Positions 14,702 through 48,974 of a DNA stretch of 57,518 nucleotides are shown here, one piece after another. The number at the start of each line of letters is the position of its first letter. Positions within the stretch are counted from its first letter, which is position 1. Source of the DNA: a virus (taxonomy: Duplodnaviria; Heunggongvirae; Uroviricota; Caudoviricetes); the IMG/VR virus record IMGVR_UViG_2861048470_000006, one strand, 5' to 3'. Made by a program: the position numbers and the translations under genes. The notes under the pieces are model-generated. The model did no database searches. It worked only from the letters and a program-made list of their open reading frames with translations, and was not told the origin of the DNA.

Positions 14702-14769
14702 AGCGTCCTCACATTTGTAACCGGCTCATTTAAACCGTCTGGTCTGTTTCCTCCGGCTCTACAAAAATA

Positions 14770-15794: not shown

Positions 15795-15813
15795 CCCGTT
15801 GTAAAGTGAGGAT

Positions 15814-17385: not shown

Positions 17386-17415
17386 ATATCAATACGGTTC
17401 TGACGAGTCGCTTAC

Positions 17416-27103: not shown

Positions 27104-27397
27104 ATGAAAAAAATGTTGTTTTCTGCCGCTCTGGCAATGCTTATTACAGGATGTGCTCAACAGACGTTTACTGTTGGAAACAAACCGACAGCAGTAACAC
27201 CAAAGGAAACCATCACCCATCATTTCTTCGTTTCGGGAATTGGACAGGAGAAAACTGTTGATGCAGCCAAAATTTGTGGCGGCGCAGAAAATGTTGTTAA
27301 AACAGAAACCCAGCAAACATTCGTAAATGGATTTCTCGGTTTTATTACTTTAGGCATTTATACTCCGCTGGAAGCGCGTGTGTATTGCTCACAATAA
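27104..27397 (+). CDS. bor: Bor lipoprotein (serum-resistance, Iss-like)
   Basis: MKKMLFSAALAMLITGCAQQTFTV... lipobox LITGC; near-identity to lambda Bor; opposite strand to late genes as in lambda; start at ATG 27104 with AGGA RBS. Confidence 0.9.
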   Translation: MKKMLFSAALAMLITGCAQQTFTVGNKPTAVTPKETITHHFFVSGIGQEKTVDAAKICGGAENVVKTETQQTFVNGFLGFITLGIYTPLEARVYCSQ

Positions 27398-29333: not shown

Positions 29334-29650
29334 GTAAAAAAACACCCCGTGAAAGGCACCCGCAGATACCTTTTATGTGGTGTTATCTGATGTGATATGC
29401 GCCTGACGTGGCTCGGAGAAAATGAAATAAAGCTTATCTGAAATTAAGGTTAATCCGGGGGTTTAAACCATTTTTAAAGCTTAGTAATATCAAATCGTCT
29501 CCTGGAGGAGACTGATGCTTATTCTTCTTCACGGACTTTGTCCCGCGGCGTTAATCCGACAGCCGCGCTTTTTTTGCGCTCAGTTCATTATTGGCTTTCA
29601 TGGCCTTGCCACACGGGTAATATCAATGCCCGTGTATTCTTTTCTGAGTT

Positions 29651-29682
29651 CAGAATAAAAAAAACCGCCCGGAACGGCGGTT
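29651..29682 (-). terminator. intrinsic terminator (minus strand)
   Basis: AACCGCC-6 nt-GGCGGTT stem followed on minus strand by U8 run; coordinates approximate. Confidence 0.55.
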
Positions 29683-30040
29683 GAAAAATGCCAGAGATGA
29701 ATCATTTTTGTAGTAGAAAAACAGAGGTGTCGGGTGCCCCCCGAAGTATCCATCTCTCCATGAATACTGTGGTTTCCCGCTAAACAGTTACATAAACCAC
29801 CCTCGCACTGAGGAACACCTCTGTAGTGTTATTTACAACACCGGGATAGTGCATCATCGGCCCCTGTCAGGAAATGCTCAATTTCCACCGATAATGCACC
29901 ATTCCAGTGGTGTAAAAAACAGCACTGTGGCTATAACCGACCTCAAATCACAGCCAGAAAACAGAATGCCTTTTAAAAACAACCTGCTCCCACGCAATAA
30001 AAAATACGCCAGTGCAACGATACAATAAGGCTTGTTTCTC

Positions 30041-30115
<75 letters not shown>

Positions 30116-30118
30116 ATA

Positions 30119-30194
<76 letters not shown>

Positions 30195-30362
30195 ACAGGT
30201 TCCTCAAGAGAAATAAAAATGACCGCGCTTACATCCCCTTCGGAACCGGGTACCGATATTAATAATGCCAGCTCTCTTTTCAATGGAAAATCATATCAAG
30301 ATTTGTAAATATACGTATATATTTTTATTTTTTATGAAATAAAGAAATTATTAAATGCATAT

Positions 30363-31409
30363 TTAACGATTATTTTTTATTTCAGTTACAGTCTGATTAA
30401 ATCTCTCTTCTTCCAGTTCCACGCCAATTGCGCGACGTCCCAGTGAAAGTGCTGCTTTTATTGTTGAGCCAGACCCCATAAAAAAATCAGCGACCAAATC
30501 ACCGGGGCGACTGCTGGCAGTAATTATCTGACGCAACATATCTGCCGGTTTTTCACAGGGATGTTTGCCTGGATAATACTGCACAGGCTTGTGCGTCCAG
30601 ACATCCGTATACGGAACAGCAGCTGATACGGAAAAATAACGCCGCAGGGATTTATACTCCTCCTGCAGGCTGGCATATTGCCGGTTCAGTTCACTGTATG
30701 TGCTGACCAGCTGGTGGTGCGGCTTTTCCAGCTCCCCGCGCTGGTGTTTTTCTGCTGCAACACGCGCGAACAGCGCCTGAAGTTTTTTGTAATCAGCCTC
30801 GTTCGGCAACTGCCACTGACTGGCACCAAACCAGTGTGACGCCATGTTTTTCTTTCCGGTGGCTTCCGCTATCTGTTTTGATGTTATTCCCAGAGATTCT
30901 CGCGCATCACGAAAGTAAGAAATCAGCGGGGCCATGACGCACTGTTTAAGCTCGCGCCCCTTTGCCGCATAGCCGTCATTTTTGGGCTGGTATGGCCCCT
31001 GATAATGTTCAGCAAACAGAATGCGCTCTGTTGCCGGGAAATACGCCCGCAGGCTTTCCTTGTTGCATCCGTTCCAGCGTCCGGACGGCTTCGCCCAGAT
31101 AATGTGGTTCAGCACATTAAAGCGTTCACGCATCATGATTTCGATATCAGATGCCAGGCGATGCCCACAGAACAGGTAAAGGCTTCCGGCAGGTTTCAAC
31201 ACCCGCCAGAACTGGGCCAGACAGTGGTCCAGCCACTTAAGGTAATCTTCGTCCCCTTTCCACTGATTGTCCCAACCGTTGGGTTTCACCTTGAAGTAAG
31301 GCGGATCGGTAACAATCAGGTCAATGGAATCATCAGGCAGGGACTGAATAAAATGCAGGCAATCAGCGTTGATTAAATCAACACTGTTTATTTTTACAGT
31401 ATTTTTCAT
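30363..31409 (-). CDS. orphan DNA methyltransferase (N6-adenine/N4-cytosine class, DPPY motif)
   Basis: 348-aa ORF; motif IV DPPY near N-terminus (DLIVTDPPYF) and FxGxG SAM-binding motif near C-terminus (FFMGSGST), beta-class order; no adjacent restriction gene. Confidence 0.8.
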   Translation of the reverse strand: MKNTVKINSVDLINADCLHFIQSLPDDSIDLIVTDPPYFKVKPNGWDNQWKGDEDYLKWLDHCLAQFWRVLKPAGSLYLFCGHRLASDIEIMMRERFNVLNHIIWAKPSGRWNGCNKESLRAYFPATERILFAEHYQGPYQPKNDGYAAKGRELKQCVMAPLISYFRDARESLGITSKQIAEATGKKNMASHWFGASQWQLPNEADYKKLQALFARVAAEKHQRGELEKPHHQLVSTYSELNRQYASLQEEYKSLRRYFSVSAAVPYTDVWTHKPVQYYPGKHPCEKPADMLRQIITASSRPGDLVADFFMGSGSTIKAALSLGRRAIGVELEEERFNQTVTEIKNNR

Positions 31410-31558
31410 GGATCAGTAAGCGTAACTCTGGTAGGCTCACTCTGCTTTTGCGCTAAAGCAGTGGGCCGTGGTTCGCTTGTGACCAGTAAGCATGAGCGAA
31501 TGGCTGGCAGGTGCTACCAACACCCACCAGCCGCCCATTTTCACAAATTAAAAGCCCT

Positions 31559-31777
31559 TCATTGCTGAAGACGTCTGTAACAGCCGAACTGGTAATCTGC
31601 CAGCCCCGCCATAACCAACTGGGTCAGTATTAACTGACAGCGTTCGCGTGAAAGGTATGTGTTTTGTGCAATCTCCCCGACTGTTGCCGGTTCGATGCTT
31701 AATTCATTAAAAACAACTTTCGCCGTTTCTGTCATATCTTGCTGTTTTAGCATGTCTTTTTCCCTTCTGGTTAACAT
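31559..31777 (-). CDS. small hypothetical protein, possible winged-helix DNA-binding
   Basis: 72-aa ORF upstream of methyltransferase; no motif recognised with confidence. Confidence 0.35.
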   Translation of the reverse strand: MLTRREKDMLKQQDMTETAKVVFNELSIEPATVGEIAQNTYLSRERCQLILTQLVMAGLADYQFGCYRRLQQ

Positions 31778-31875
31778 GACATACCAATAACTCTTGTCTA
31801 AAAAGCCAGCAAGATAAAAAGTCAGTATTCACTACCACCAGCGTGTTTACCGTACTGCACCAAGTTTACAGGTAC

Positions 31876-31901
31876 AAAAAAACCCGCTCGACGGCGGGTT
31901 T
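31876..31901 (-). terminator. intrinsic terminator (minus strand) at the distal edge of the 427-aa gene moron
   Basis: AAACCCGC-6 nt-GCGGGTTT stem followed on minus strand by U7; coordinates approximate. Confidence 0.45.
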
Positions 31902-32009
31902 AAGCTGTGTGGCGAAGTAACCACTCTTAACAGATTACAAGAATTTTTGCGTACGCGTTAATTTTTTTGTATTTTTCTCATTACACAACATATAAACCCT
32001 ATGTAAAAA

Positions 32010-33293
32010 ATGACAGCAGAAATAGCCGTATTTAACAAGACCGCAGTAGCTTTAGCCGCAGATTCAGCTGTAACGATTTCTGGAGGCGGCAAACATAAAA
32101 TCTATAATGGCGCTGAAAAGCTTTTCGCTCTCACTAAACATCATCCTGTAGGTTTGATGGTATATGGAACTGGTGATCTCTGCACAGCTCCATGGGAGCT
32201 TATCATTAAGGCTTATAGAAAGGATTTAGGCTCTAAATGTTTTGACTCTTTGGAGGAATATGCTGAGGATTTCTTCAATTATCTACAGTCAGCTAAATCA
32301 ATCATCACACCAGGTATGCGTGAGGCTCATCTTTATCACTTCCTGAGCGAGATTGTATTCAGCATGCTTGTTGATGCTTTTTCTGAAGGTCTCGAACCAA
32401 CATATCTCGTTAACTTCGATAAGAATCAATTTGTTACAGACCTCACGAATTATTGCAACGATCTCCTTACAAAATTATCTGATATTAATTACTTTGATGG
32501 TTTTACTCCGGATGATGAACAAGCAGCCCAAACCTATGCTTCATCAATTACCCAACGCATCATTGCTCAAAAGTTTAGTGACTTTGATTCAATATCCATA
32601 ACTCCACAGTTGACAAAAGCAGTTAGTGATGTATTGGCAGCTATGATATGCAAGCAAAGTGATATTGGTTCCGTCTCTGGGATTGTGATTGCAGGTTATG
32701 GCGATAAAGACTATTACCCTAAAGTATTATCATATGAAGTTTGTGGCTTCTTTAATGATAAAATAAGGAAAACCACAGATGCTGACAAGTGCTGCATCAC
32801 TCCTAATTGCGGCGTGACTCCCTTTGCGCAAGAGGATGAAGTTTCTGCTTTCATGCAAGGAGCTAGTTCACATCTTATCCAAAATCTTCATGCTGAGTAT
32901 CAACGTTCTATCGGCGATTTACTTGATGGTATTGATTCAGTAATCACAGATTTGGTGCCCACTTCAGATATCGAAGGAGCCAAGGATGCTATAGTTGATG
33001 TAGTGCGCAGAACTGTTTCCGATTGCAAGGGGCGAATTGATAGCTTTGTCCGAGAAAACTATGTTGACAAAGTCGTAAATATGATCGAGTTTTTACCCAA
33101 GCAAGATTTAGCTTATATGGCTGAATCATTAGTAAATTTAACCGCTTTCAAGCGCAAGGTCTCCGATGATACTGAAACAGTGGGAGGCCCCATAGATGTT
33201 GCAATCATTTCTAAAGCTGATGGTTTTATCTGGGTTAAACGTAAGCACTATTTTGCAAAAGAACTGAACCATCACTACTTTTCACGGTCATAG
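32010..33293 (+). CDS. 427-aa protein with N-terminal HslV/proteasome-beta-like Ntn-hydrolase region (Thr2) and uncharacterised C-terminal half
   Basis: N-terminus MTAEIAVFNKTAVALAADSAVT aligns position-for-position with HslV [21 protein letters not shown] as recalled; GxGD-like segment GLMVYGTGDL; lower GC than flanks; opposite strand to phage late genes. Confidence 0.5.
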   Translation: MTAEIAVFNKTAVALAADSAVTISGGGKHKIYNGAEKLFALTKHHPVGLMVYGTGDLCTAPWELIIKAYRKDLGSKCFDSLEEYAEDFFNYLQSAKSIITPGMREAHLYHFLSEIVFSMLVDAFSEGLEPTYLVNFDKNQFVTDLTNYCNDLLTKLSDINYFDGFTPDDEQAAQTYASSITQRIIAQKFSDFDSISITPQLTKAVSDVLAAMICKQSDIGSVSGIVIAGYGDKDYYPKVLSYEVCGFFNDKIRKTTDADKCCITPNCGVTPFAQEDEVSAFMQGASSHLIQNLHAEYQRSIGDLLDGIDSVITDLVPTSDIEGAKDAIVDVVRRTVSDCKGRIDSFVRENYVDKVVNMIEFLPKQDLAYMAESLVNLTAFKRKVSDDTETVGGPIDVAIISKADGFIWVKRKHYFAKELNHHYFSRS

Positions 33294-33316
33294 CAACAAA
33301 TAGACAAGGGGAACAC

Positions 33317-33466
33317 ATGTCACTTAAGCAAGCCTATGAAAGAACTCAACCCAAAAGCATCAATGATTTCTTTCAGTTGAGTACTTCTGGAAAGAGTCGA
33401 CGTACTGTAACAAGCCAATCTAACTTCTTTACTAAATTGAACAAAACATTACCTGCACAATCCTAA
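33317..33466 (+). CDS. candidate 49-aa ORF co-oriented with the 427-aa gene
   Basis: hand-translated (MSLKQAYERTQPKSINDFFQLSTSGKSRRTVTSQSNFFTKLNKTLPAQS); AAGGGG RBS 6 nt upstream; 23 bp after 427-aa stop. Confidence 0.3.
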   Translation: MSLKQAYERTQPKSINDFFQLSTSGKSRRTVTSQSNFFTKLNKTLPAQS

Positions 33467-33472
33467 AATGCT

Positions 33473-33494
33473 AAAAGCCACTACGGTGGCTTTT
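33473..33494. terminator. bidirectional hairpin terminator between convergent Q gene and 427-aa cassette
   Basis: AAAAGCCAC-tacg-GTGGCTTTT with T-rich flanks on both strands. Confidence 0.5.
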
Positions 33495-33499
33495 AGCTT

Positions 33500-33862
33500 T
33501 TATTTACATGCAATAACGCTCGTAATACCCTCTACAAAACCAATTGCAGTTTGTAATTCCTTTCTAATCGTGCCATCTGAACACCTTCTCTTTTTGGCAA
33601 TAGTGCGTAATGAGATACCAATAACAAAGTGGGCTATGATGAGCTCATATTCCTCTGGTTTATACCTTCTCAACCGAGCCACACAACTGTCTATCATAAT
33701 GCCTTCGTCATCATCACACTGAATCCGTGACTTTTTACCATGAGGTAAAAGCCCCTTGAAGCCCGCTGCTATCGGTTGCCAATCGACACCACTATTTTCT
33801 GCTGCAGCCCATGCCCCCCAGCGGTCTAAAACCTCATACATATCACGCCCCATTACTATCAC
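33500..33862 (-). CDS. late antiterminator Q (phage-82/QuuD type)
   Basis: motifs LDRWGAWAA...IAAGFKGL...CSDG match QuuD-type Q as recalled; probable start at internal ATG (33853). Confidence 0.7.
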   Translation of the reverse strand: MIVMGRDMYEVLDRWGAWAAAENSGVDWQPIAAGFKGLLPHGKKSRIQCDDDEGIMIDSCVARLRRYKPEEYELIIAHFVIGISLRTIAKKRRCSDGTIRKELQTAIGFVEGITSVIACK

Positions 33863-34214
33863 CTCTAATTTCGCAAATCTTCACGCCCAGCCGACCACCA
33901 GGAACGAGCTTACCGCGCACAATATTGATTTCATCAAACTGCTCGTCGTCTATGAGAAGCCCCGCATGCGTCAGTGCATCCAGCGGTGCTTTCAGGATAT
34001 TGTCCAGGTCCCGACGGCGCTTATCCGGCGGCTCTGCAGTAATTTTTATTGCCAGCCTTCCGGACAGGTTTAATTTCAGCCGCTGCTGGCGGACAATAAG
34101 TGCCACATCCCGGCGATAACGCTCACCGGCTTTTGATACAAAATATGTGCTGCCACGACGACGCCAGTAGGTGTTCACCGTCGGCGGGTAAGGCAAAACA
34201 AACTCTATACGCAT
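33843..34214 (-). CDS. rusA: Holliday junction resolvase RusA
   Basis: 123-aa ORF with RusA motifs (PPTVNTYW, RRRDLDN). Confidence 0.85.
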   Translation of the reverse strand: MRIEFVLPYPPTVNTYWRRRGSTYFVSKAGERYRRDVALIVRQQRLKLNLSGRLAIKITAEPPDKRRRDLDNILKAPLDALTHAGLLIDDEQFDEINIVRGKLVPGGRLGVKICEIRGDSNGA

Positions 34215-35719: not shown

Positions 35720-35875
35720 TTACTCCTCAGGTTCGTAAGCTGTGAAGACAGCGACCTCCGTCTGGCCGGTTCGGATTCGTACCTCGCAGAGGTCTTTCCT
35801 CGTTACCAGTGCCGTCACTATGACGGTTAAACAGATGACGATCAGGGCGATTAACATCGCCTTTTGCTGCTTCAT
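35720..35875 (-). CDS. hokD: Hok-family type I toxin
   Basis: 51-aa product MKQQKAMLIALIVICLTVIVTALVTRKDLCEVRIRTGQTEVAVFTAYEPEE matches Hok/RelF as recalled; track ORF extends upstream in frame. Confidence 0.9.
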   Translation of the reverse strand: MKQQKAMLIALIVICLTVIVTALVTRKDLCEVRIRTGQTEVAVFTAYEPEE

Positions 35876-36086
35876 AGCCTGCTTCTCCTTGCCTTTCGGC
35901 ACGTAAGAGGCTAACCTAGATTTGCCGTTCATAGATTGAGCCTCAGATTAATGTTAAGCGTCTTGCAGGACGCGTAATGTTAACTGGGGCTTTTCTCTAT
36001 CTGCCTTTGGTGTTCATGCCTGAGACAGATAGCCTCAAGCACCCGCAGCCATTCTACTTAACTCCCGTTACCTCGCCAATATAAAA

Positions 36087-36888: not shown

Positions 36889-37719
36889 TTGAAAGTTATT
36901 AGCTTAATCAATATGAAAGGTGGCGTTGGTAAGTCAACATTGGCTACCAATATTGCTAATCATCTTTCAGATAAACTTGGGCAAAAAATATTATTAATAG
37001 ATATCGACCCACAATTTAACGCAACGCAATGTGTAATGGATACAAGCAAATATGTTGCACATATGAAAAGCGGAGGCGATAGCATATGTGATATTTTTTA
37101 TAGTTCAAAAATTCGACTATCTACAATGACTGGTCCTTTAGTTAACACACCTAAAGAATTAGCCGATATAACACCAATTCAATTAAATGATAATTTTCAC
37201 ATTGTTCCCGGAAGCCTTGGGCTATATAAAATTGAAATGAAACCAGGAGAAGGGATAGAAAACAAGCTTAGACGCTTTCTTAAAATCCATGAAAATGACT
37301 ATGATTATGTCATAATTGATACCCCACCAACCCCATCAGTTTGGATGTCCAGCGCATTAATTGCATCTGATTATTACCTCATTCCAGCCAAACCCGATCC
37401 TCTTTCGATCACTGGTATCGATCTATTAGATAGCATTATAAATGAGAAGAGAGAAAATTTCGATCTTAAGATTGAATGTGCGGGCATAGTTTTTAATATG
37501 GTTGAAGGTAATAGTAATTTATATGAGGAAAGTCTTCGTTACTTCAATAATCAAAAACGTTGGCGTAATAAGATCTTTAAATCATATTTGAGCAAACGTA
37601 CTGAGTTGGCAAGAAATCAAACAAGAGGCTTATTTATTAACAATTTAACGGATGAGGATATGAAGTTTTCGCTGTCTAAAATTACTGACGAACTTCTCTC
37701 TAGAGTAGGTGACTTATGA
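36889..37719 (+). CDS. ParA/MinD/Soj-family P-loop ATPase
   Basis: 276-aa ORF, TTG start with AGGAG RBS; deviant Walker A KGGVGKST, DIDPQ and Walker B-like VIIDTPP motifs; very AT-rich. Confidence 0.8.
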   Translation: MKVISLINMKGGVGKSTLATNIANHLSDKLGQKILLIDIDPQFNATQCVMDTSKYVAHMKSGGDSICDIFYSSKIRLSTMTGPLVNTPKELADITPIQLNDNFHIVPGSLGLYKIEMKPGEGIENKLRRFLKIHENDYDYVIIDTPPTPSVWMSSALIASDYYLIPAKPDPLSITGIDLLDSIINEKRENFDLKIECAGIVFNMVEGNSNLYEESLRYFNNQKRWRNKIFKSYLSKRTELARNQTRGLFINNLTDEDMKFSLSKITDELLSRVGDL

Positions 37720-38222
37720 CTGACAAAAAAAATAACTCAAAAGAAATTAAGCAACTGTTAAACTTTTTAGAGGAGTTTTCCTTTATTTCAAAAAAATTAT
37801 CAAGAATCAACTTTATTGAATTACTTCAAGATAGTTATACTGATAATTTAGAAGTTAACGAAAGAAATTCAAAGTCCAAAAAAAATGATATTAAAGGTTT
37901 CCTTGTTGGGTATCTTCCGAGGATTTTATTAGACAAAGATCTCTTCCAAAAAAATAAAGATATAGATGATTTTGCACGCATGTTAGGTATCGAAATCAGC
38001 AGGCCTGAAAAAAGATCTAGAGAGGAAATGATCGGCATAATCGTGTGTGACGTTCACGAGAAAAACTCATCCGATTTAGGTAAGGCTTATAATATTATCA
38101 ATTCAATGTCAAATAACCCTCTAGTTTTGAGTAGAATAAAAGAGAGGAAGAACCTTTCTAGCGCTCAAAATGAGATATATGACTGGAATGAAGTTATAAA
38201 AGATATATTCAATAAGGACTAA
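37716..38222 (+). CDS. hypothetical protein, second gene of ParA-like operon
   Basis: 168-aa ORF overlapping ParA stop by 4 nt (ATGA); Lys/Asn-rich; no motif recognised. Confidence 0.5.
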   Translation: MTDKKNNSKEIKQLLNFLEEFSFISKKLSRINFIELLQDSYTDNLEVNERNSKSKKNDIKGFLVGYLPRILLDKDLFQKNKDIDDFARMLGIEISRPEKRSREEMIGIIVCDVHEKNSSDLGKAYNIINSMSNNPLVLSRIKERKNLSSAQNEIYDWNEVIKDIFNKD

Positions 38223-38224
38223 CA

Positions 38225-38920
38225 ATGTCGAGAGAAGTAAACAGCGATTTCACTGAGTTAGTTACTTATTTCTCTGAATATAAATTAAAAAATGTTTTCG
38301 AGAATATTAACTCAAGAGGGAAAATAAGCATGATACATAAGAGATATTATTCTTTTATGTGCCTTGTTTACTGTTTGTATCATTTCTCCAAGGAGAAAAT
38401 AGACGCCAACTCATTGGAGCGATTGCAAGAAGCTTCATCTGACCTTGGTACAGCTATGTTTATGGTTATAAATGGTGCATACAAACCAGCAAATCTAATG
38501 ATGCGAAGTTATATTGAAAATTCTTTAAAATCAATCGGTTGCTTACTAGATCCTTCAATACTTGAAGAAAAATCATTGTTTAAGGTAATTGAACAAACTG
38601 GGGAACATCCTGTCTTCAAAAAAAATCCTCTACTACATGAAACTTTAAAAGCTGAATACTCTTCGTTATGCAGTCACGTACATACAGCTACTGTAAAAGA
38701 AATGGCTCACATAAAAGCTTTAAATGTTTTTCCCGAAATAGACTTGGTTAAAATAGATAATATTTCGAAGGTGATTGATAAGGTGGTTAAGACTATGATA
38801 TCAACTATCATAAGAATTTTTCCTGATGTTTTCTTTTCCTTTGCACCTGAGTATCGAGAAAAAATCCTCCTTAGCTTAACCTCTGCACAACGAGCCTCAC
38901 TTCATTCCTTAAGTGATTAA
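38225..38920 (+). CDS. hypothetical protein, third gene of ParA-like operon
   Basis: 231-aa ORF 2 nt after previous stop; no motif recognised. Confidence 0.5.
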   Translation: MSREVNSDFTELVTYFSEYKLKNVFENINSRGKISMIHKRYYSFMCLVYCLYHFSKEKIDANSLERLQEASSDLGTAMFMVINGAYKPANLMMRSYIENSLKSIGCLLDPSILEEKSLFKVIEQTGEHPVFKKNPLLHETLKAEYSSLCSHVHTATVKEMAHIKALNVFPEIDLVKIDNISKVIDKVVKTMISTIIRIFPDVFFSFAPEYREKILLSLTSAQRASLHSLSD

Positions 38921-38933
38921 CTAACAAGTATGA

Positions 38934-38966
38934 CATAAAAACTATCCTATTGTGATAGTTTTTATG
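38934..38966 (+). terminator. 13-bp-stem hairpin directly after the three-gene operon (putative terminator)
   Basis: CATAAAAACTATC-ctattgt-GATAGTTTTTATG; coordinates anchored to stop at 38918-38920. Confidence 0.4.
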
Positions 38967-39116
38967 TTCATTAAGATGACTATATCAGGAATTATTGCCG
39001 AATTTTAATTTTCATATTGATTTTACTATCTCTCACCAACTCTTGTAAGTATCCTTCCGCCACAAGCGGACCATGTGCATTTAAATATCTGACCTAACGT
39101 GCCGTAACGCCGCAAT

Positions 39117-39140
39117 GTCCGCTTCTGGCACAAAGCAGAC
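39117..39140 (+). repeat. 24-bp imperfect direct repeat, copy A (GTCCGCTTCTGGCACAAAGCAGAC)
   Basis: 20/24 identity with copy B at 42790-42813; internal dyad symmetry GTCCGC...GCAGAC. Confidence 0.4.
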
Positions 39141-39202
39141 GCCCACTCTCACGCGAATGCTTTGCCCTTGACTTGCCAACAACCGTATCGCTTGCTCCGC
39201 AA

Positions 39203-40495
39203 CTATGGTTTTTTATTAGAATCTTCGCCACTAAATAAATTATAATAAATTGATTTTATTAGATATCTGTCAGAATCTATATGGTCAGCACGAGTAGCAT
39301 GCTCTAATGTTTCAAATGCTAGGGTTTGTGCGGCTTCAGCAAAAATTCCAGGCCAACCCTTACTCAGCATCGACAGTCCTTTAAGGATCCTTATCTGAAT
39401 TTCCCTCATACTGGCACCATCGCGCGCAACAGGTGAGAAAAAGTCTTCAAGTAGATCGTTATTCTGAAGTGGTGCAACATGTACAGAAGGATATTTCACT
39501 TCTATTTCATCAGATTTATTCTGCGCGTAAGCGGAAAGTATACGTACACCTCTGCCAATGACATCAATGGCGGTTCCAGGATCGTTCACTGCGGGGGAAA
39601 GGGCTCGGCAGGCTATTTCGGCCATGACGCTAAGACAAAATCGGGGGTCCTGAGCAAATGAACGTACATCCGAGACAATAATCGTCTCAAGTAAATCGGT
39701 GCTGATTGATGACTCCTGGCCCTGACTCAGGTACAAAACTGGCGTGGACGGATGTATGAAACTGCCCGGCTGCGCCACGAGGTATACATGACGGGGATCA
39801 TTGGTCAGCAGCTTGCTGAGTTTCACCATATCAACATATTCAACATAGCCAATCTTTTTCGGATAAACTGCAACCGTTCCTTTCGGCTGTTCATTGTTCT
39901 CAAGCCATGGATATCCGCCGAGACAGGGATTTCTTGCTCTCGCAATAAATGTTTCGATGGCCGCCTGTTCTACTTTTGCCGTTGTCTCACCAACCCTCCC
40001 CAGAGAGGTCAAATGCTGTATCCAGCGAAGCAATGTGATGAGGATTAAGGCAATGACAACCAGTGTTACAATGAATAAAATGACTCTCCCCCTTTCTCCA
40101 TAAGCTCCCATATTGAGGGCAATAATCCCTACCAGACTGAAGAGAAAAGAACCGATGAAGGTGGCCAGTACATTTTGTGTGGTGACGTCTTCAACAACTA
40201 AACGAGTAGCTCTGGGAGTCACATTAGTAGTGGCTGAACCGTAGGCTGTGACCATGATGCTCAGCGAAAATGTGGTCACTGCCAGCATACTCGATGCCAG
40301 TATGTTCAGAATGTTATCGACTGCTTCCGCACCAACCTTCACGGAAACCGACTCAGGTATCATTGATTTAAAAAGAATTGATAAAAGGGCCGTTATTATT
40401 GCGACAATTGCGAATAACGTTGCCCTGAACCATAGTTTTTTAAATGTCTGCTTCAGCATCCATTTCCAGCGTGAAATCATTCTGCATTCCCTCAT
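39203..40495 (-). CDS. DUF2254-like multi-TM membrane protein
   Basis: 430-aa ORF with N-terminal TM helices and large soluble C-terminal domain; family from recollection. Confidence 0.5.
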   Translation of the reverse strand: MRECRMISRWKWMLKQTFKKLWFRATLFAIVAIITALLSILFKSMIPESVSVKVGAEAVDNILNILASSMLAVTTFSLSIMVTAYGSATTNVTPRATRLVVEDVTTQNVLATFIGSFLFSLVGIIALNMGAYGERGRVILFIVTLVVIALILITLLRWIQHLTSLGRVGETTAKVEQAAIETFIARARNPCLGGYPWLENNEQPKGTVAVYPKKIGYVEYVDMVKLSKLLTNDPRHVYLVAQPGSFIHPSTPVLYLSQGQESSISTDLLETIIVSDVRSFAQDPRFCLSVMAEIACRALSPAVNDPGTAIDVIGRGVRILSAYAQNKSDEIEVKYPSVHVAPLQNNDLLEDFFSPVARDGASMREIQIRILKGLSMLSKGWPGIFAEAAQTLAFETLEHATRADHIDSDRYLIKSIYYNLFSGEDSNKKP

Positions 40496-40543
40496 ATTGC
40501 AGCCGGGATAAATAAATGCCGCCTCTGTGGCGGCATGTTGCTG

Positions 40544-42547
40544 TTAACGAACCAGATGCAGGAAGTGCAGGTGTTTTTCGTACTGGTCCAGTATGTCATT
40601 AATCAGCTGTTCCTGATTCCAGCCCATTACATCATAATTTTGGCCGCCCTCTTTGAGATAGACTTCAGCGCGATAATATCGATGTTGTTCACTCTGCTGC
40701 TCATCATTATCCAGCGCAGCGAGCGCGAAGGTCGGTGAGTTATACCCGCGAAGCCTCACTTCATATATATAATTCAGCTCGTTGCCCAAATCGACTTCAA
40801 GGCGAATACGATCCTCGGCGGCGTCACTGATGTGGCTTATCGTTCCCTGCTTGTTAAGTTCCTCCTGAACCAGCGTCATGGCGGGTTGGATAATGTCGTC
40901 CATAAAACGTTTCACAAGAGAGCGCTTCGGCAAATACGCGATATTGCGTAACCTTCTCTGCCAGGGAATTGGGTTACGTGCAGCCGTAGGAGCAATAGTC
41001 GCCATGCTAAGGCTTTCACGCTTGGTCAAATCCCGACGCAGGGCTTTTAACAGTCCGTATATGGATATTAATAAGATAACTGAGAAGGGCAATGCACTCG
41101 CTATCGTTACGGTTTGCAACGCACTCAGCCCCCCTGCGATCAGCAGGGCAATAGCAACAACGCCCATGAGCAATGCCCAGAAAATTCGCTGCCAGACGGG
41201 CGTGTTTGCCACCCCACCTGATGCCAGAGTATCCACAACCATTGCCCCCGAATCAGCAGACGTTACAAAGAAGACGATGACCATCGCCATTGCAATGAAT
41301 GACAGCACGGAAGAGAACGGGAAATGCTCCAGGAAATTAAACAGGGCAAGCGCAACATCCTGCTGAACGGTATTGGCGAGGTCAGTGGCGCCCTGGTTCA
41401 TGATGAGATAGATGGCGCTGTTTCCAAACACCGTCATCCACATGAGCGTAAAGCCGGCGGGAACAAACAACACGCCAGTCACGAACTCACGAATTGTCCT
41501 GCCGCGGGAAACGCGTGCAATGAACATACCTACAAACGGCGACCATGAAAGCCACCATCCCCAGTATAATAATGTCCAGCCCCCCAGCCAGTTGCTCGAC
41601 TTGGGTTCATACGCGTAAAGGTTGAACGTTTTACTCACCAGTTCCGACAGATAACCACCCGTATTTTCCACAAATGACTTCAGCAGAAGCACAGTGGGAC
41701 CCAGGCACAAGACCAGCGCCAGGAGCAACACCGCCAGGCCCAGATTAAGCTCAGACAGGATGCGTATTCCCTTGTCCAGGCCGGACACCACCGAAATCGT
41801 CGCTAACCCCGTGATGACCACGATCAAAATGACCTGTACCGTTTCATTGATGGGCACGCCGAAAAGATGGTTCAAACCGGCATTCACCTGCAATACACCG
41901 TAACCCAGCGATGTTGCAACGCCAAAGACAGTGCCTATCACGGCGAAGATATCAACCGCGTGGCCTATAGGCCCGTAAATGCGATCGCCGATAATGGGAT
42001 AGAGCGCAGAACGCAGCGTTAAAGGCAGACCGTGACGGTAACTGAAAAAGGCCAGAATCAGCGCCACGATGGCATAAATTGCCCATGCGTGCAGACCCCA
42101 GTGGAAGAACGTCAGGCGCATGGCTTCCTTCGCTGCCGCAACGGTCTCTGGAGTGCCGACAGGTGGCGAAAGATAATGCATCACAGGTTCGGCAACGCCA
42201 AAGAACATCAGGCCGATCCCCATCCCTGCCGAAAAAAGCATCGCGAACCAGGAGTGGTAGCTGAAATCAGGCTGCGCATGGTCTGGGCCCAGCTTTATAT
42301 CACCGTAACGTGAGAGTCCAAGGAACGTGACGCTCAGTAAAATCAGGGCCACAGCAAGTATGTAGAACCAGCTGGCATTCGTGAAGATTTGTTGCTGAAG
42401 TAGTTTAAAATTTTTGTCGGCGACATCCGGGAATACGGCGGCAAAGGCGACAAGAAGGAAAATTAGCAAAGCAGATGTAAAGAATACCGCTTTGTTAACC
42501 TGGCTTGTAGACTTCTTTGGGGTTGTATCATTTTCACTCATAATCAT
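40544..42547 (-). CDS. BCCT-family transporter (BetT/BetU-like choline/betaine transporter)
   Basis: 667-aa ORF; conserved BCCT segments (GDIKLGP, WTLLYWGWWLSWSPFVGMFIARVSRGRTIREF) parallel E. coli BetT as recalled. Confidence 0.85.
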   Translation of the reverse strand: MIMSENDTTPKKSTSQVNKAVFFTSALLIFLLVAFAAVFPDVADKNFKLLQQQIFTNASWFYILAVALILLSVTFLGLSRYGDIKLGPDHAQPDFSYHSWFAMLFSAGMGIGLMFFGVAEPVMHYLSPPVGTPETVAAAKEAMRLTFFHWGLHAWAIYAIVALILAFFSYRHGLPLTLRSALYPIIGDRIYGPIGHAVDIFAVIGTVFGVATSLGYGVLQVNAGLNHLFGVPINETVQVILIVVITGLATISVVSGLDKGIRILSELNLGLAVLLLALVLCLGPTVLLLKSFVENTGGYLSELVSKTFNLYAYEPKSSNWLGGWTLLYWGWWLSWSPFVGMFIARVSRGRTIREFVTGVLFVPAGFTLMWMTVFGNSAIYLIMNQGATDLANTVQQDVALALFNFLEHFPFSSVLSFIAMAMVIVFFVTSADSGAMVVDTLASGGVANTPVWQRIFWALLMGVVAIALLIAGGLSALQTVTIASALPFSVILLISIYGLLKALRRDLTKRESLSMATIAPTAARNPIPWQRRLRNIAYLPKRSLVKRFMDDIIQPAMTLVQEELNKQGTISHISDAAEDRIRLEVDLGNELNYIYEVRLRGYNSPTFALAALDNDEQQSEQHRYYRAEVYLKEGGQNYDVMGWNQEQLINDILDQYEKHLHFLHLVR

Positions 42548-42789
42548 TTATTCCATTAATTAAATCCGCACTGGATAGAAGGTACTACCTCTCACAGAGT
42601 AGCAAAGTTCAACTGGCTATGCGGGATTAATCGGAATGCATGGTGGAATGAGTGCCGATACAAATCATCCTATATTCTAAGGAGTTTTAAGTTACTCAGC
42701 CTGCCAATTACTGGGGCATTTAATTTGTATGATCTGTATCAAAGCTGGGATATAAGTTAAGTGAAGTATATTAGGCACGAATTACCAGC

Positions 42790-42813
42790 GTCTGCTCTTG
42801 GCACAAAGCGGAC
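42790..42813 (+). repeat. 24-bp imperfect direct repeat, copy B (GTCTGCTCTTGGCACAAAGCGGAC), abutting IS3
   Basis: see copy A; last 3 nt GAC are the IS3 target duplication. Confidence 0.4.
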
Positions 42814-42878
42814 TGATCTTACCCAGCAATAGTGGACACGCGGCTAAGTGAGTAAACTCTCAGTCAGAGGTGACTCAC

Positions 42879-43125
42879 ATGACAAAAACAGTATCAACCA
42901 GTAAAAAACCCCGTAAACAGCATTCGCCTGAATTTCGCAGTGAAGCCCTGAAGCTTGCTGAACGCATCGGTGTTACTGCCGCAGCCCGTGAACTCAGCCT
43001 GTATGAATCACAGCTCTACAACTGGCGCAGTAAACAGCAAAATCAGCAGACGTCTTCTGAACGTGAACTGGAGATGTCTACCGAGATTGCACGTCTCAAA
43101 CGCCAGCTGGCAGAACGGGATGAAG
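42879..43125 (+). pseudogene. insE: IS3 orfA (insE) 5' portion, interrupted by nested ISEc8-like element; remaining orfA codons resume at 45568
   Basis: MTKTVSTSKKPRKQHSPEFRSEALKLAERIGVTAAARELSLYESQLYNWRSKQQ... reads through to RDE then hits the IS end; continuation [17 protein letters not shown] found after the nested element. Confidence 0.85.
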
Positions 43126-43196
43126 GTAAGCGTACAGCCTGAACCGTCTGGTCAGAATCTGACAAATTAGACAAAGTGGTGTCCACCAAATAAGTA

Positions 43197-43598
43197 GTGG
43201 GAACCAAAGTGTCAGATATGCAGAAAAATGTGACTCCCGGCAGGCGAAAAGGCTGCCCTAATTATCCTCCCGAATTTAAACAGCAGCTCGTTGCTGCCTC
43301 CTGTGAACCCGGGATATCCATCTCAAAACTTGCTCTTGAAAATGGCATTAACGCCAATCTGTTGTTCAAATGGCGACAACAATGGCGCGAGGGAAAGCTG
43401 CTATTACCTTCTTCAGAGAGCCCCCAGCTACTTCCTGTGACTCTCGATGCAGCTGCCGAACAGCCAGAATCGCTCGCAGAGGACCCGGAAACCCTCAGTA
43501 TCAGCTGTGAGGTAACGTTCCGGCACGGGACGCTCCGCTTCAATGGCAATGTCAGCGAAAAGCTCCTGACTCTGCTGATACAGGAACTGAAGCGATGA
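43197..43598 (+). CDS. IS66-family OrfA
   Basis: 133-aa ORF. Confidence 0.85.
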   Translation: MGTKVSDMQKNVTPGRRKGCPNYPPEFKQQLVAASCEPGISISKLALENGINANLLFKWRQQWREGKLLLPSSESPQLLPVTLDAAAEQPESLAEDPETLSISCEVTFRHGTLRFNGNVSEKLLTLLIQELKR

Positions 43599-43942
43599 TC
43601 CCGTTACCTTCCGGGACCAAAATTTGGCTGGTTGCCGGTATCACCGATATGAGAAATGGCTTCAACGGCCTGGCTGCGAAAGTACAAACGGCGCTGAAAG
43701 ACGATCCCATGTCCGGCCATGTTTTCATTTTCCGGGGCCGCAGCGGCAGTCAGGTTAAACTGCTGTGGTCCACCGGTGACGGACTGTGCCTCCTGACCAA
43801 ACGGCTGGAGCGTGGGCGCTTCGCCTGGCCGTCAGCCCGTGATGGCAAAGTGTTCCTTACGCAGGCGCAGCTGGCGATGCTGCTGGAAGGTATCGACTGG
43901 CGACAGCCCAAGCGGTTGCTGACCTCCCTGACCATGCTGTAA
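43595..43942 (+). CDS. IS66-family OrfB (TnpB-like)
   Basis: 115-aa ORF, 4-nt overlap with orfA. Confidence 0.85.
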
Positions 43943-43991
43943 ATCTCTTTATCCTGGTTGTCACAGAATAAGCCCGGTAAAATACGGGCTT

Positions 43992-45530
43992 ATGAACGAC
44001 ATCTCTTCTGACGACATCTTCCTGCTGAAACAGCGCCTGGCCGAACAGGAAGCGCTGATCCACGCCCTGCAGGAAAAGCTGAGCAACCGGGAGCGCGAAA
44101 TAGACCATCTGCAGGCGCAGCTGGATAAACTCCGCCGGATGAACTTCGGCAGTCGTTCCGAAAAAGTCTCCCGCCGTATCGCACAAATGGAAGCCGATCT
44201 GAACCGGCTTCAGAAAGAGAGCGATACGCTGACTGGTAGGGTGTATGACCCGGCTGTACAGCGTCCGTTGCGTCAGACCCGCACCCGTAAGCCGTTCCCT
44301 GAATCACTACCCCGTGACGAAAAGCGACTGTTGCCTGCGGCGCCGTGCTGCCCGAACTGCGGCGGTTCACTGAGCTATCTGGGCGAGGATACCGCCGAAC
44401 AGCTGGAGTTGATGCGTAGTGCCTTCCGGGTTATCCGGACGGTACGGGAAAAACATGCCTGTACTCAGTGCGATGCCATCGTGCAGGCACCTGCACCTTC
44501 GCGGCCCATCGAGCGGGGTATCGCCGGACCGGGGCTGCTGGCCCGCGTGCTGACCTCGAAGTATGCAGAGCACACCCCGCTGTATCGCCAGTCAGAAATA
44601 TACGGCCGGCAAGGTGTGGAGCTGAGCCGTTCACTGCTGTCGGGCTGGGTGGATGCATGCTGCCGGCTGCTGTCTCCGCTGGAAGAGGCGCTTCATGGCT
44701 ATGTCATGACTGACGGCAAACTCCATGCCGATGATACCCCGGTCCAGGTACTGCTGCCGGGTAATAAGAAGACGAAGACCGGGCGGTTGTGGGCGTATGT
44801 TCGTGATGACCGCAATGCCGGGTCAGCGTTGGCACCTGCAGTGTGGTTCGCTTACAGCCCGGACAGAAAAGGCATCCATCCGCAGACTCATCTTGCCTGC
44901 TTCAGCGGTGTGCTGCAAGCGGATGCGTACGCCGGGTTCAACGAGCTGTATCGCAATGGTGGGATAACGGAAGCTGCCTGCTGGGCTCATGCCCGCCGAA
45001 AGATCCACGATGTGCACGTCCGCATCCCGTCAGCACTGACGGAAGAAGCCCTGGAGCAGATCGGTCAGTTGTACGCCATAGAGGCGGATATAAGGGGAAT
45101 GCCGGCAGAGCAGCGGCTTGCTGAACGTCAGCGAAAAACGAAACCGCTGTTGAAATCCCTGGAAAGCTGGTTGCGTGAAAAGATGAAAACCCTGTCGCGA
45201 CACTCAGAACTGGCGAAAGCGTTCGCATACGCCCTGAACCAGTGGCCGGCGCTGACGTACTATGCAGATGATGGCTGGGCTGAGGCGGACAATAACATCG
45301 CTGAAAATGCGTTGCGGATGGTCAGTCTGGGCCGCAAAAACTACCTGTTCTTCGGTTCGGATCATGGAGGAGAGCGGGGAGCGCTGCTGTACAGCCTGAT
45401 CGGGACGTGCAAACTGAACGGAGTGGAGCCAGAAAGCTACCTCCGCTATGTCCTTGACGTCATAGCCGACTGGTCGATAAACCGGGTCGGCGAACTGCTC
45501 CCCTGGCGCGTAGCACTGCCGACTGAATAA
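43992..45530 (+). CDS. IS66-family transposase OrfC
   Basis: 512-aa ORF. Confidence 0.9.
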
Positions 45531-45624
45531 CACATCCCCGTCAATACGGTTCTTGCTGCACGCTTACGGATGAAGAGCTGGCTATCCTCCAAAAGGCCGC
45601 GACATACTTCGCGAAGCGCCTGAA

Positions 45625-46491: not shown

Positions 46492-46592
46492 GCCTGTGTC
46501 CATATTACGTGGGTAGGATCAGACAACCACGCTAGCTCTACCCTGTGCCACAAAATGTCAATTTGCATCTGAACTAATGCACTTTAATCTCG

Positions 46593-46763: not shown

Positions 46764-46770
46764 TGTCAAT

Positions 46771-48974
<2,204 letters not shown>

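Follow-up and report, generated by a model that had tools for sequence, protein, structure and literature searches.

Enzymes of the M.EcoGII family are marketed reagents and are used for chromatin footprinting and RNA engineering. M.EcoGII and M.EcoGI, from E. coli O104:H4 C227-11, methylate adenine N6 non-specifically (Murray et al. 2018, PMC5778455). In lysogens, the family is silent and leaves no methylation motif, and constitutive expression of M.EcoGII harms the cell (PMC5778455). In an RNA assay, M.EcoGII, Anc291, and SUPREM showed no site preference (PMC11551740), and homologues 92–93% similar to M.EcoGI/GII were listed as 'nonspecific', with no motif in lysogens (PMC6602927). An anti-restriction role of M.EcoGII has been put forward in the source papers as a proposal only (PMC5778455, PMC11551740), and a search of the literature yielded no data on the induction of EcoGII-type enzymes in lambdoid phages or on their use against restriction.

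The com-mom module of phage Mu has a comparable layout. A small protein gene lies directly 5' of a toxic late enzyme of broad adenine-modifying activity that counters restriction, and the control point is a structured RNA before the start codon of the enzyme; com also occurs with non-specific adenine methyltransferases in Mu-like prophages (PMC6483171, PMC3299994). The phage-borne adenine methyltransferases Hin1523, Hia5, and Nme1821 (M.HaeV type) likewise have a small regulator gene on the 5' side and are silent in the prophage (Drozdz et al. 2012).

We analysed a stretch of 57,518 nucleotides (the window; virus record IMGVR_UViG_2861048470_000006), whose element is an IS-disrupted lambdoid prophage of an ETEC chromosome. 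The features of the locus are as follows.

33500–33853, minus strand: antiterminator Q (Pfam Phage_antitermQ, E 1.3e-43; RefSeq)
31932–31961, minus strand: candidate late promoter pR', TTAACG-18 nt-TAATCT (inferred from homology)
31880–31901, minus strand: intrinsic tR'-like late-operon terminator, AAACCCGCCGTCGAGCGGGTTT then TTTTGT (terminator scan)
31779–31813, minus strand: conserved block CTTGCTG-N13-CAGAGTTAYnTGTRTGT, 5' of the small ORF (upstream alignment)
31559–31753, minus strand: gene for a small winged-helix protein, 64 aa (RefSeq call; PHROG 331; predicted fold)
31410–31545, minus strand: conserved structured leader (5' UTR) of the methyltransferase gene, ~135 nt (conservation and covariation)
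30363–31409, minus strand: methyltransferase gene, 348 aa, predicted M.EcoGII-family beta-class N6-adenine DNA methyltransferase (ORF list and Pfam)
30119–30194, minus strand: tRNA-Thr(UGU) (ARAGORN; Rfam tRNA)
30041–30115, minus strand: tRNA-Gly(UCC) (ARAGORN; Rfam tRNA)

The 348-aa protein is, as judged from its sequence, a beta-class DNA methyltransferase of the M.EcoGII family. DPPY (motif IV) is read at residues 35–38 (nt 31296–31307), and the SAM-binding motif I, FxGxG, at residues 309–314 (FFMGSG, nt 30468–30485). The order is that of the beta class, with DPPY at the N-terminal side, a long linker/TRD, and FxGxG at the C-terminal side. Pfam N6_N4_Mtase (PF01555) covers residues 29–340 with an E value of 5.2e-45 and 154 bits (cut-off 26.7), a score far beyond chance. 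An earlier note on this DNA had read the same reading frame, motifs, linker, and class, and the coordinates and the Pfam match agree with it. PADLOC assigned the protein to MTase_II (E 2.5e-151), with matches to generic MTase_II models only. RsrI, MboIIA, CcrM, and other solved beta-class enzymes match only residues ~9–112 and ~281–340; this alignment in two blocks marks the middle segment of ~170 residues as the long linker/TRD, in which LGITSKQIAEATGKKNMASHWF looks like an Xre-like HTH segment. An N-terminal extension of the protein into the leader was ruled out by an in-frame TGA located 6 nt 5' of the ATG.

Along its whole length, the methyltransferase shares 83% of its residues with M.EcoGII (348 vs 349 aa). 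Identity to the reconstructed ancestors Anc291 and Anc289 is 89% and 87.5%, and to SUPREM it is 74%; like the value for M.EcoGII, these figures depend on reference sequences that were machine-read from a supplement, with a few misreadings, and are therefore probably slightly below the true identities. The enzyme of phage 1720a-02, which has been named as a close relative of M.EcoGII (PMC5778455), is 84% identical to the window enzyme and 93% identical to M.EcoGII. The window enzyme and M.EcoGII are also alike in motif order and in being prophage-borne orphans. They differ in 17% of their residues, and the activity of the window allele is predicted from its sequence. The enzyme itself thus appears ordinary, one more allele of a known family. 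Since M.EcoGII, Anc291, and SUPREM, to which it is 74–89% identical, showed no site preference, the window methyltransferase lies inside an experimentally bracketed sequence space, and its most likely activity is N6 methylation of adenines whatever the surrounding sequence. The residues differing from M.EcoGII, some of which are in the linker/TRD, could in principle restore some specificity. The earlier note had proposed to predict the specificity from REBASE and to count a cognate restriction gene as refutation if one lay elsewhere in the genome. With 83% identity to M.EcoGII, whose family has no recognition sequence, neither the prediction nor the cognate-gene test applies.

In the lambdoid paradigm, Q lets RNA polymerase pass a terminator into the late genes. 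The gene order on the minus strand of the window is Q, terminator, small ORF, methyltransferase, two tRNAs, holins, and lysozyme, and the same order is found in SfV, phiP27, mEp460, and Stx2 phages. Both tRNAs lie immediately 3' of the methyltransferase gene in the same transcription direction and score 69.8 (Thr) and 65.6 bits (Gly) with the Rfam tRNA model. Nearly all related loci have a terminator in the place of the hairpin at 31880–31901, and in phage 1720a-02 a homologous hairpin lies directly 3' of Q. A gene of 1.3 kb on the opposite strand is located between Q and the candidate pR'. A block running from TAACGCGTACGCAAAAA to GTAATCTGnTAAGAG, beside the stop codon of Q, is common to phage 1720a-02 and four loci (L016, L022, L033, and L034) whose Q proteins are 80–85% identical to that of the window. 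The consensus scan did not find the candidate pR' at 31932–31961. A homology of the short late transcript to StxS was considered, but the published StxS comes with another type of Q and has a leader of 258 nt. That the module lies behind a Q-dependent terminator was not included in the earlier note.

We consider it probable that the locus carries an M.EcoGII-type cargo methyltransferase of the late operon, which is silent in the lysogen and hypermethylates the progeny DNA against restriction. In the lysogen, transcription from the late promoter would halt at the terminator at 31880–31901, and the toxic methyltransferase would stay silent; the position of the gene is consistent with such silence. 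After induction, Q-modified RNA polymerase would pass the terminator into the module, and the methyltransferase would be produced late, when the cell is already committed to lysis. The progeny phage DNA would then be hypermethylated and would resist many m6A-blocked restriction enzymes of the next host. An anti-restriction use, as suggested in the earlier note, would be the best-supported role of the enzyme. This proposal starts from family membership, gene order, linkage, conservation, and covariation, from which we infer that the allele lacks specificity, that its expression depends on Q, that it counters restriction, and that the leader is regulatory. The block at 31779–31813 is kept from Escherichia to Proteus and Plesiomonas and might serve as a promoter that is weak or needs an activator, or as part of a 5' UTR. 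If it is an independent promoter, the case for strict Q-dependence of the methyltransferase is weakened. The sigma-70 consensus scan gave no promoter in this block and none in the leader.

The 64-aa winged-helix gene, a weak terminator, the ~135-nt leader, and the methyltransferase gene form a fixed travelling unit. The small ORF is found 5' of the methyltransferase gene, at a fixed spacing, in 32 of 33 genome loci and 77 of 78 viral loci; it is dispensable for the linkage in about 4–7% of loci, and the leader stays with the methyltransferase gene in seven loci without the small ORF. Phage 1720a-02, which served as a proxy for the O104:H4 locus of M.EcoGII itself, has the same small ORF and leader 5' of its methyltransferase gene. 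The module is present in about half of the complete E. coli genomes (2605 of 5426).

The condition of the host prophage raises the question of whether the module still has a use there. IS66 is inserted in the tail region (14717–17415) and IS100/IS3 in the early region, and in a near-identical copy in ETEC-2265, tail genes are frameshifted and a tail fibre gene is truncated; therefore, the module may rarely or never be expressed in the ETEC strain. The exact allele of the methyltransferase occurs in only about nine complete genomes. These observations would fit a functionless relic of a decaying prophage that is intact only for lack of time. However, the ORF, the catalytic motifs, the leader, and the small ORF are all intact in the window and score like those of intact phages (for the leader, with the covariance model), and the methyltransferase and small-ORF genes are under strong purifying selection across the family. 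We regard a relic as somewhat doubtful. Such a reading concerns the present use of the element, not its nature, and is compatible with a late-operon cargo methyltransferase.

The small ORF upstream of the methyltransferase gene was given as 72 aa in the earlier note. A frame of this length exists (31559–31777, minus strand), but the true start is most likely the ATG at 31753, which gives 64 aa. The RefSeq annotation (31559–31753), the modal length of the homologues (63–64 aa), an AAGGG Shine-Dalgarno-like site 8–9 nt 5' of this ATG, and a 2-nt indel 5' of it in phage 1720a-02, which breaks the frame of the longer version, all point to this start. Within Enterobacteriaceae, where estimable, dN/dS is 0.04–0.12 (pS 0.5–0.8), indicating a real gene. 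The protein matches PHROG 331, which has no assigned function (E 5e-35), and Cys39 and Cys58 are invariant in the homologue alignment. In the AF2 model (pLDDT 90), three helices and a beta-hairpin wing form a winged helix. The model gave TM scores of 0.7–0.83 against winged-helix domains of MarR/OhrR, IclR, and SelB; a Foldseek search returned generic winged-helix domains with a best E value of 2e-3 and none below 1e-3. In Pfam (E<=0.01), only the sub-threshold matches DprA_WH (17.2 bits, cut-off 22.9) and TrmB (16.4 bits, cut-off 25.6) were found, and PADLOC had no match. When 1.84 billion representatives were searched with a profile, only 86 clusters were obtained, all of them small proteins except for three long repetitive ones that are probably spurious. 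A weak hairpin with a U-tract at 31545–31570 encloses the stop codon of the small ORF.

The small winged-helix protein may have a regulatory role. Type II systems with C-proteins also have a gene for a small DNA-binding protein just 5' of the methyltransferase gene, and the earlier note had considered the small ORF a potential controller protein. However, C-proteins are Xre-type helix-turn-helix proteins that act at C-boxes and time a nuclease, whereas the small ORF has no Xre/HTH_3 match in Pfam, its predicted fold is a winged helix, and the locus has no nuclease; a C-protein was therefore ruled out. A zinc finger of the Mu Com type was also ruled out, because Com has four cysteines and the window protein has two invariant cysteines and a winged-helix model. 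The two modules differ further in that Mom is not a methyltransferase and that com and mom overlap, while the window small ORF and methyltransferase gene, the latter coding for a predicted methyltransferase, are ~150 nt apart. Hin1523, Hia5, and Nme1821 have little or no specificity, like the activity predicted for the window enzyme; however, they are proteins of ~280 aa that were aligned with the Dam and DpnII M1 methyltransferases, not with the beta class (Drozdz et al. 2012), and the Mu-like phages that carry them are transposable and have a true Com homologue, unlike the window prophage.

The spacer between the small ORF and the methyltransferase gene, which was absent from the earlier note, is the most conserved part of the locus. 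The leader is the new part of the locus: it is folded, conserved, and not previously described, and the papers on M.EcoGII that were consulted (among them PMC5778455 and PMC11551740) mention neither the structured leader nor the upstream winged-helix gene. It is 134–153 nt long in 32 loci and, within Enterobacteriaceae, 78–89% identical to that of the window, compared with 70–78% and 71–82% for the flanking genes; it is thus more conserved than either of them. When TGTG at 31545 is counted as position 1, its helices are P3 (31521–31532 with 31502–31513), P2b (31495–31500 with 31472–31477), and P4/P5 (31455–31467 with 31434–31448). Alternative helices are P2 (31533–31538 with 31492–31497) and P1 (31541–31545 with 31478–31482). 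P2 and P2b compete for one segment and are mutually exclusive pairings. The 3' end is an invariant CUGAUCyAUG, without AGGAGG. The helices are 87% paired, compared with 29–45% when the partner is slid, and 13 pairs are changed on both sides. None of 500 shuffles reached the observed values, a control that overstates the significance because the related leader sequences are not independent. A covariance model found exactly one copy per locus, with 103–169 bits. In Rfam 15, nothing matched 31401–31545 at E<=1 when 10 kb were searched, and a search of 611 nt gave no match to the leader at E<=10; the sub-threshold matches (Trp_leader, isrK, and P9) are confined to the terminator upstream. A leader peptide from an ORF at the invariant AAAUGGGCGG (MGGWWVL in most Enterobacteriaceae) was rejected, since its length and sequence vary: it is 7 aa long in most loci and 33 aa long in the window, its sequence is unrelated in Proteus, and loop indels shift the frame.

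The spacer at 31410–31545 might instead act as DNA, as a boundary of recombination modules, a protein-binding site, or a promoter. It contains long invariant stretches and lies at a junction between exchangeable genes, and in four loci recombination breakpoints fall inside it, with the methyltransferase gene deleted. However, two-sided changes keep the pairing (CG, AU, and UA at one P2b pair, and GC to AU at the bases of the P3 and P4 helices), and in a Proteus locus (L025) the entire P3 hairpin differs in sequence yet pairs. The spacer is also 78–89% identical where the flanking synonymous sites are near saturation (pS 0.5–0.9), and the consensus scan shows no sigma-70-like site in it. A DNA-level element is therefore unlikely.

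Since the leader is kept with the methyltransferase gene even without the small ORF, it is probably cis-regulatory, and since it retains full covariance-model scores in those loci, the winged-helix protein is not required in cis. The leader most probably limits or times the translation of the methyltransferase, and the factor acting on it may be the winged-helix protein or the methyltransferase itself. It has invariant junctions and covarying stems, and the exclusive pairings of P2 and P2b would be as expected of a switch. We tentatively suggest that the leader might represent an undescribed class of structured cis-regulatory RNA, which gates translation of the toxic methyltransferase alone or with the 64-aa protein or the enzyme, and that it might be a lambdoid counterpart of the com-mom circuit of Mu. 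The regulatory link is known in com-mom, whereas in the window module it is only a hypothesis.

Dam and CcrM are N6-adenine methyltransferases without a nuclease partner, and CcrM is a beta-class enzyme and a detectable structural relative of the window protein. By analogy with this orphan, the window enzyme could be a sequence-specific epigenetic regulator of the host that is expressed in the lysogen, possibly from its own promoter in the block 5' of the small ORF. However, Dam and CcrM are chromosomal, recognize GATC and GANTC, and are expressed in normal growth. The window enzyme is 83–89% identical to enzymes without site preference, its family leaves no methylation motif in lysogens, its gene lies behind an intrinsic terminator in a late operon, and cells are harmed when M.EcoGII is expressed constitutively. 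A host regulator is thus very improbable.

No endonuclease was annotated or detected beside the methyltransferase gene or elsewhere in the prophage with Pfam, RefSeq, or PADLOC. The earlier description as an orphan methyltransferase of a lambdoid prophage with no adjacent endonuclease therefore holds, and the linked endonuclease gene of a Type II restriction-modification system is absent from the locus. The sole adjacent gene without an assigned function encodes 427 aa on the opposite strand, ~230 bp from the small ORF. Its product adopts the proteasome-beta (Ntn) fold, and its N-terminal Met-Thr is invariant. As is common for defence genes, the gene occurs as a lone cargo, in phages and satellites from several phyla. 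That the methyltransferase supplies the modification function of a split system for restriction or defence, with this gene or one elsewhere in the genome as effector, is scarcely credible and largely refuted by the linkage counts, since the 427-aa gene adjoins the methyltransferase gene in only 1 of 34 and 2 of 80 loci, occurs without such a methyltransferase in Streptococcus satellites and in Stenotrophomonas and Porphyromonas phages, has a fold that is not that of a nuclease and no PADLOC match, and a methyltransferase without a recognition sequence cannot label DNA as self for a nuclease that is sequence-specific.

In annotation, 'no restriction partner' should be read as normal for the M.EcoGII family and not as an anomaly. 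The methyltransferase gene is always accompanied by a highly conserved folded leader, and in nearly all loci by the gene of a dedicated winged-helix protein. If the leader and this protein control expression, they would explain the silence of the M.EcoGII family in methylomes. They would then constitute a tractable post-transcriptional switch in E. coli prophages, which could also aid the laboratory expression of such enzymes. If the leader is an RNA switch, it is present in the prophages of about half of the complete E. coli genomes.

Both ORFs described in an earlier note, a methyltransferase gene and a small ORF upstream of it, are present on the minus strand (30363-31409 and 31559-31777). 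The genes and signals of this region are as follows.

30363-31409, minus strand: 348-aa methyltransferase ORF, from the ORF search
31410-31545, minus strand: leader, the structured spacer between the small ORF and the methyltransferase gene
31559-31753, minus strand: small ORF with its most likely start, 64 aa
31880-31901, minus strand: intrinsic terminator, between Q and the small ORF
about 31932-31961, minus strand: candidate late promoter, inferred from a block common to related loci
32010-33293, strand opposite to Q and the small ORF-leader-methyltransferase module: 427-aa gene, between Q and the terminator
33500-33853, minus strand: Q, after DUF968 and RusA

The motifs named in the note can be read off the sequence: DPPY near the N-terminus at residues 35-38 (nt 31296-31307) and, for FxGxG near the C-terminus, FFMGSG at residues 309-314 (nt 30468-30485). 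Pfam N6_N4_Mtase matches residues 29-340 (E 5.2e-45). The long linker was also confirmed: alignments with beta-class enzymes of known structure (RsrI, MboIIA, CcrM, and others) cover only the N- and C-terminal parts of the protein and leave approximately 170 central residues unmatched. Full-length identity to M.EcoGII is 83%; the M.EcoGII sequence was taken from the machine-read supplement of PMC11551740 and has a few reading errors. The window protein shares 84% identity with the methyltransferase of the related phage 1720a-02, which is 93% identical to M.EcoGII and was named its close relative by Murray et al. (PMC5778455). The 348-aa protein is almost certainly an M.EcoGII-family methyltransferase.

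M.EcoGII methylates adenines irrespective of the surrounding sequence; the enzyme is encoded by a prophage, unexpressed in the lysogen, and harmful to the cell if constitutively expressed (PMC5778455). The identity of the window protein to Anc291, a reconstructed ancestral methyltransferase, is 89%, above that to M.EcoGII, and its identity to the deeper ancestor SUPREM is 74%. Both ancestors are active on DNA and RNA, and a nanopore RNA assay gave no discernible motif for Anc291, SUPREM, or M.EcoGII (PMC11551740). A study of STEC methylomes lists homologues with 92-93% similarity to M.EcoGI/GII as 'nonspecific', and these contributed no motif in lysogens (PMC6602927). Because the window allele falls within a region of sequence space in which the tested enzymes lack specificity, it is predicted with good confidence to have none.

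The note had seen no endonuclease gene adjacent to the methyltransferase, and none is annotated or detectable anywhere in the prophage. The test proposed there, a search for a cognate restriction gene elsewhere in the genome, is inapplicable because enzymes of the M.EcoGII family have no recognition sequence. Of the neighbouring genes, the 427-aa ORF is the only one without an assigned function, and it has no match in Pfam, NCBIfam, or PADLOC. It adjoins the methyltransferase at only one genome locus (of 34) and two viral loci (of 80), and it is also found alone in phages of Providencia, Stenotrophomonas, and Porphyromonas and in Streptococcus satellite phages.

The small ORF, reported as 72 aa, is a real coding sequence, and its start is most likely ATG 31753, which gives 64 aa. 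This start is used in the RefSeq annotation and is preceded at a suitable distance by an AAGGG site. The homologues are mostly 63-64 aa long, and a 2-nt indel just upstream of this position in phage 1720a-02 disrupts the longer frame. Comparison with orthologues of other genera showed synonymous sites near saturation (pS 0.5-0.8) and few non-synonymous differences; within Enterobacteriaceae, dN/dS is 0.04-0.12 where estimable.

The 64-aa protein belongs to PHROG 331, which has no known function. Its predicted structure (pLDDT 90) consists of three helices and a beta-hairpin wing, and its Foldseek neighbours are generic winged-helix domains only (E ~2e-3), namely, the N-terminal domains of O-methyltransferases, MarR/OhrR, IclR, and the RNA-binding winged helix of SelB. 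The suggestion that it is a controller protein was not upheld for the Xre type: the model is a winged helix, and the only Pfam matches, to DprA_WH and TrmB, score below threshold. A Com-like zinc finger was ruled out because only two cysteines are invariant. The family is narrow: 1.84 billion representatives yielded 86 clusters, which are small proteins with the exception of three long repetitive ones, probably spurious, and none of the 86 shows fusion to a recognisable nuclease or methyltransferase. When loci were found by the small protein, the methyltransferase gene lay downstream in 32 of the 33 informative genome loci, which range from Escherichia to Proteus, Providencia, and Plesiomonas. 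When they were found by the enzyme, the small ORF lay upstream in 77 of 78 viral contigs, and the single exception (L095) has the ORF in divergent form.

The small ORF and the methyltransferase gene are separated by a spacer of nearly constant length (134-153 nt, mostly 148-151 nt). Within Enterobacteriaceae this spacer is 78-89% identical to that of the window, compared with 70-78% for the small ORF and 71-82% for the methyltransferase gene; the synonymous sites of both flanking genes are near saturation, yet the spacer is more conserved than either. A pattern scan for the leader core in viral contigs gave 121 matches. Both genes are present at 96 of them, the leader and methyltransferase without the small ORF at seven, and the small ORF with only the first hairpin, the methyltransferase being deleted, at four; three are chance matches in unrelated GC-rich DNA, and 11 are too near a contig end for both genes to be scored. 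From these counts, the leader belongs to the methyltransferase gene. Its 5' start is UGUGRAAAUGGGCGG, always preceded by a terminator-like hairpin and U-tract. Among the seven loci lacking the small ORF, a gene for a membrane protein of ~225 aa lies upstream in four, and in L193 the late terminator leads straight into the leader. In L134, L176, L205, and L220, another gene takes the place of the winged-helix gene, and a terminator separates it from the intact leader and methyltransferase; therefore, the slot before the leader is exchangeable. The complete replacement genes (L134, L205, and L220) each code for a protein of ~225 aa that has a membrane helix at its N-terminus.

The leader structure was examined in 34 representatives with <95% identity and in 50 distinct sequences realigned with a covariance model. 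The three hairpins (P3, P2b, and P4/P5) are 86-87% paired, in contrast to 29-46% when the partners are slid by 1-3 columns. Pairs changed on both sides number 10-13, and the observed values are reached in 0 of 500 shuffles, a control that overstates significance because the sequences share ancestry and the realigned set was made to fit the model. One P2b pair is found as CG, AU, UA, and UG, and the group formed by Proteus and Providencia has AU instead of GC at the basal pairs of P3 and P4. In Proteus sp. FME41 (L025, 6202-6349), the P3 sequence is wholly different (GACAGUGAGGAUG...CAUCCCCGCUGUC); the hairpin still forms, and the invariant segments flanking it are retained. RNAalifold, as a separate line of analysis, favours an alternative helix, P2 (AUGGGC with GCUCAU), which is pairable in essentially all sequences and varies by wobble changes only. 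P2 and P2b are mutually exclusive because they share the GCU segment. The minimum-energy fold is the P1/P2/P3 form, and the P2b form is less stable by 4.2 kcal/mol on average. Such a pattern would be expected from a conformational switch but does not prove that there is one.

With the covariance model, each locus gives a single hit (103-169 bits), in every case on the strand of the gene, and the hit in the window is at 31401-31545; Rfam gave no match to the leader even at E<=10. AGGAGG is lacking at the methyltransferase start. The invariant CUGAUCyAUG there holds an in-frame UGA and the segment UGAUC, which we take to be complementary to the GGAUCA preceding the anti-Shine-Dalgarno sequence at the 3' end of 16S rRNA, and UGAUC may thus be a ribosome contact. 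We see an even chance that the leader works as a structured RNA in the control of methyltransferase expression. That the winged-helix protein works via the leader is a tentative and rather unlikely idea.

The minus-strand order is DUF968, RusA, Q, the intrinsic terminator, the small ORF, the methyltransferase, tRNA-Thr, and tRNA-Gly, followed by further terminators, two holins, and a GH108 lysozyme. The putative late promoter was placed at ~31932-31961 because the stretch of phage 1720a-02 homologous to 31778-31976 comes directly after the Q stop codon, and because loci with a Q 80-85% identical have the block TAACGCGTACGCAAAAA..GTAATCTGnTAAGAG before the terminator, as in the window. A consensus promoter scan reported no site there. 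Expression is likely to be late and Q-dependent. A candidate short late transcript (31874-31950, minus strand) would run ~50 nt from promoter to terminator; its Rfam matches are all sub-threshold (Trp_leader, E 0.24; P9, E 1.1; isrK, E 1.9), and it differs from StxS RNA of Stx phages, a promoter-to-terminator transcript of 258 nt. Between the late terminator and the small ORF, the block CTTGCTG-N13-CAGAGTTAYnTGTRTGT (31779-31813, minus strand) is kept from Escherichia to Proteus and Plesiomonas, whichever Q type lies upstream. It was not reported as a sigma-70-like site by the consensus scan; a promoter that needs an activator and an element of the 5' UTR are two possible readings.

The window comes from an E. 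coli chromosome, and its positions 29900-33900 are 100% identical to several human ETEC isolates, including ETEC-2265. It holds a lambdoid prophage from a truncated ydfJ on the left to an integrase at the right end, which is probably defective. An IS66-family copy lies in the tail-gene region (14717-17415); in ETEC-2265, near-identical in other respects, this element disrupts the gene for the terminase large subunit instead. The early region is taken up by IS100 and IS3, and this part (42704-48717) is also rearranged relative to ETEC-2265; thus, IS positions differ between closely related strains. In the near-identical reference, the tail assembly genes are frameshifted and the tail fibre gene is truncated. 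Just upstream of the DUF968-RusA-Q block, the prophage carries the hokD toxin gene with a full-length sok antisense RNA (RF01794, 110 bits; 35720-36044, minus strand). Between this locus and the IS elements is a cargo block (36889-42541). It encodes a ParA-family ATPase, whose gene forms an apparent operon with two unknown genes, as well as a DUF2254 protein and a BCCT-family transporter; no gene in it has a convincing PADLOC match. Between the tRNA-Gly and holin genes, ~680 bp (29360-30040, minus strand) contain no credible ORF and several terminator-like hairpins, such as 29663-29682. This is the slot of Stx or LT-II toxin genes in related phages, and phage SerU-LTIIb matches the methyltransferase-tRNA stretch at 91%. 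In the near-identical reference, iss (increased serum survival lipoprotein, a bor homologue; 27104-27397, plus strand) is annotated downstream of the lysis genes.

Of 5426 complete E. coli genomes, 2605 contain 30363-31777 at a coverage of >=80%, and a single genome may have as many as eight copies. Identity is 80-90% for most copies, and about nine records have exactly this allele. Annotated copies of the module are present in SfV, phiP27, mEp460, and many Stx2 phages. The methyltransferase belongs to a known and very common family, of which it is a new and uncharacterised allele; the observation itself is ordinary. The papers on M.EcoGII that we consulted do not mention the upstream gene or the leader, and our search found no work on the regulation or in vivo role of an M.EcoGII-type enzyme. 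Therefore, the conserved leader and its dedicated winged-helix companion seem to be undescribed, and the leader seems to be the one new thing here.

The closest working analogy is com-mom of phage Mu, in which a small protein binds a hairpin before the start codon of a toxic, broad adenine-modifying enzyme (PMC6483171). In Mu-like prophages of Haemophilus and Neisseria, non-specific adenine methyltransferases stand in place of mom, and com and a predicted Com site are kept (PMC3299994). However, the likeness is functional only, since the 64-aa protein fails the defining features of Com. In the lysogen, the late promoter would be active and its transcript would end at the terminator, following the lambdoid paradigm shown for Stx phages (PMC7547250). 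Upon induction, Q would render RNA polymerase terminator-resistant, and the small ORF, methyltransferase, tRNAs, and lysis genes would then be transcribed. The leader would limit or time translation of the cell-toxic enzyme, possibly through the winged-helix protein or the enzyme itself. Most adenines of the replicating phage DNA would be methylated before packaging, and such DNA would withstand many m6A-blocked restriction enzymes in the next host; on balance, we favour an anti-restriction role for the enzyme.
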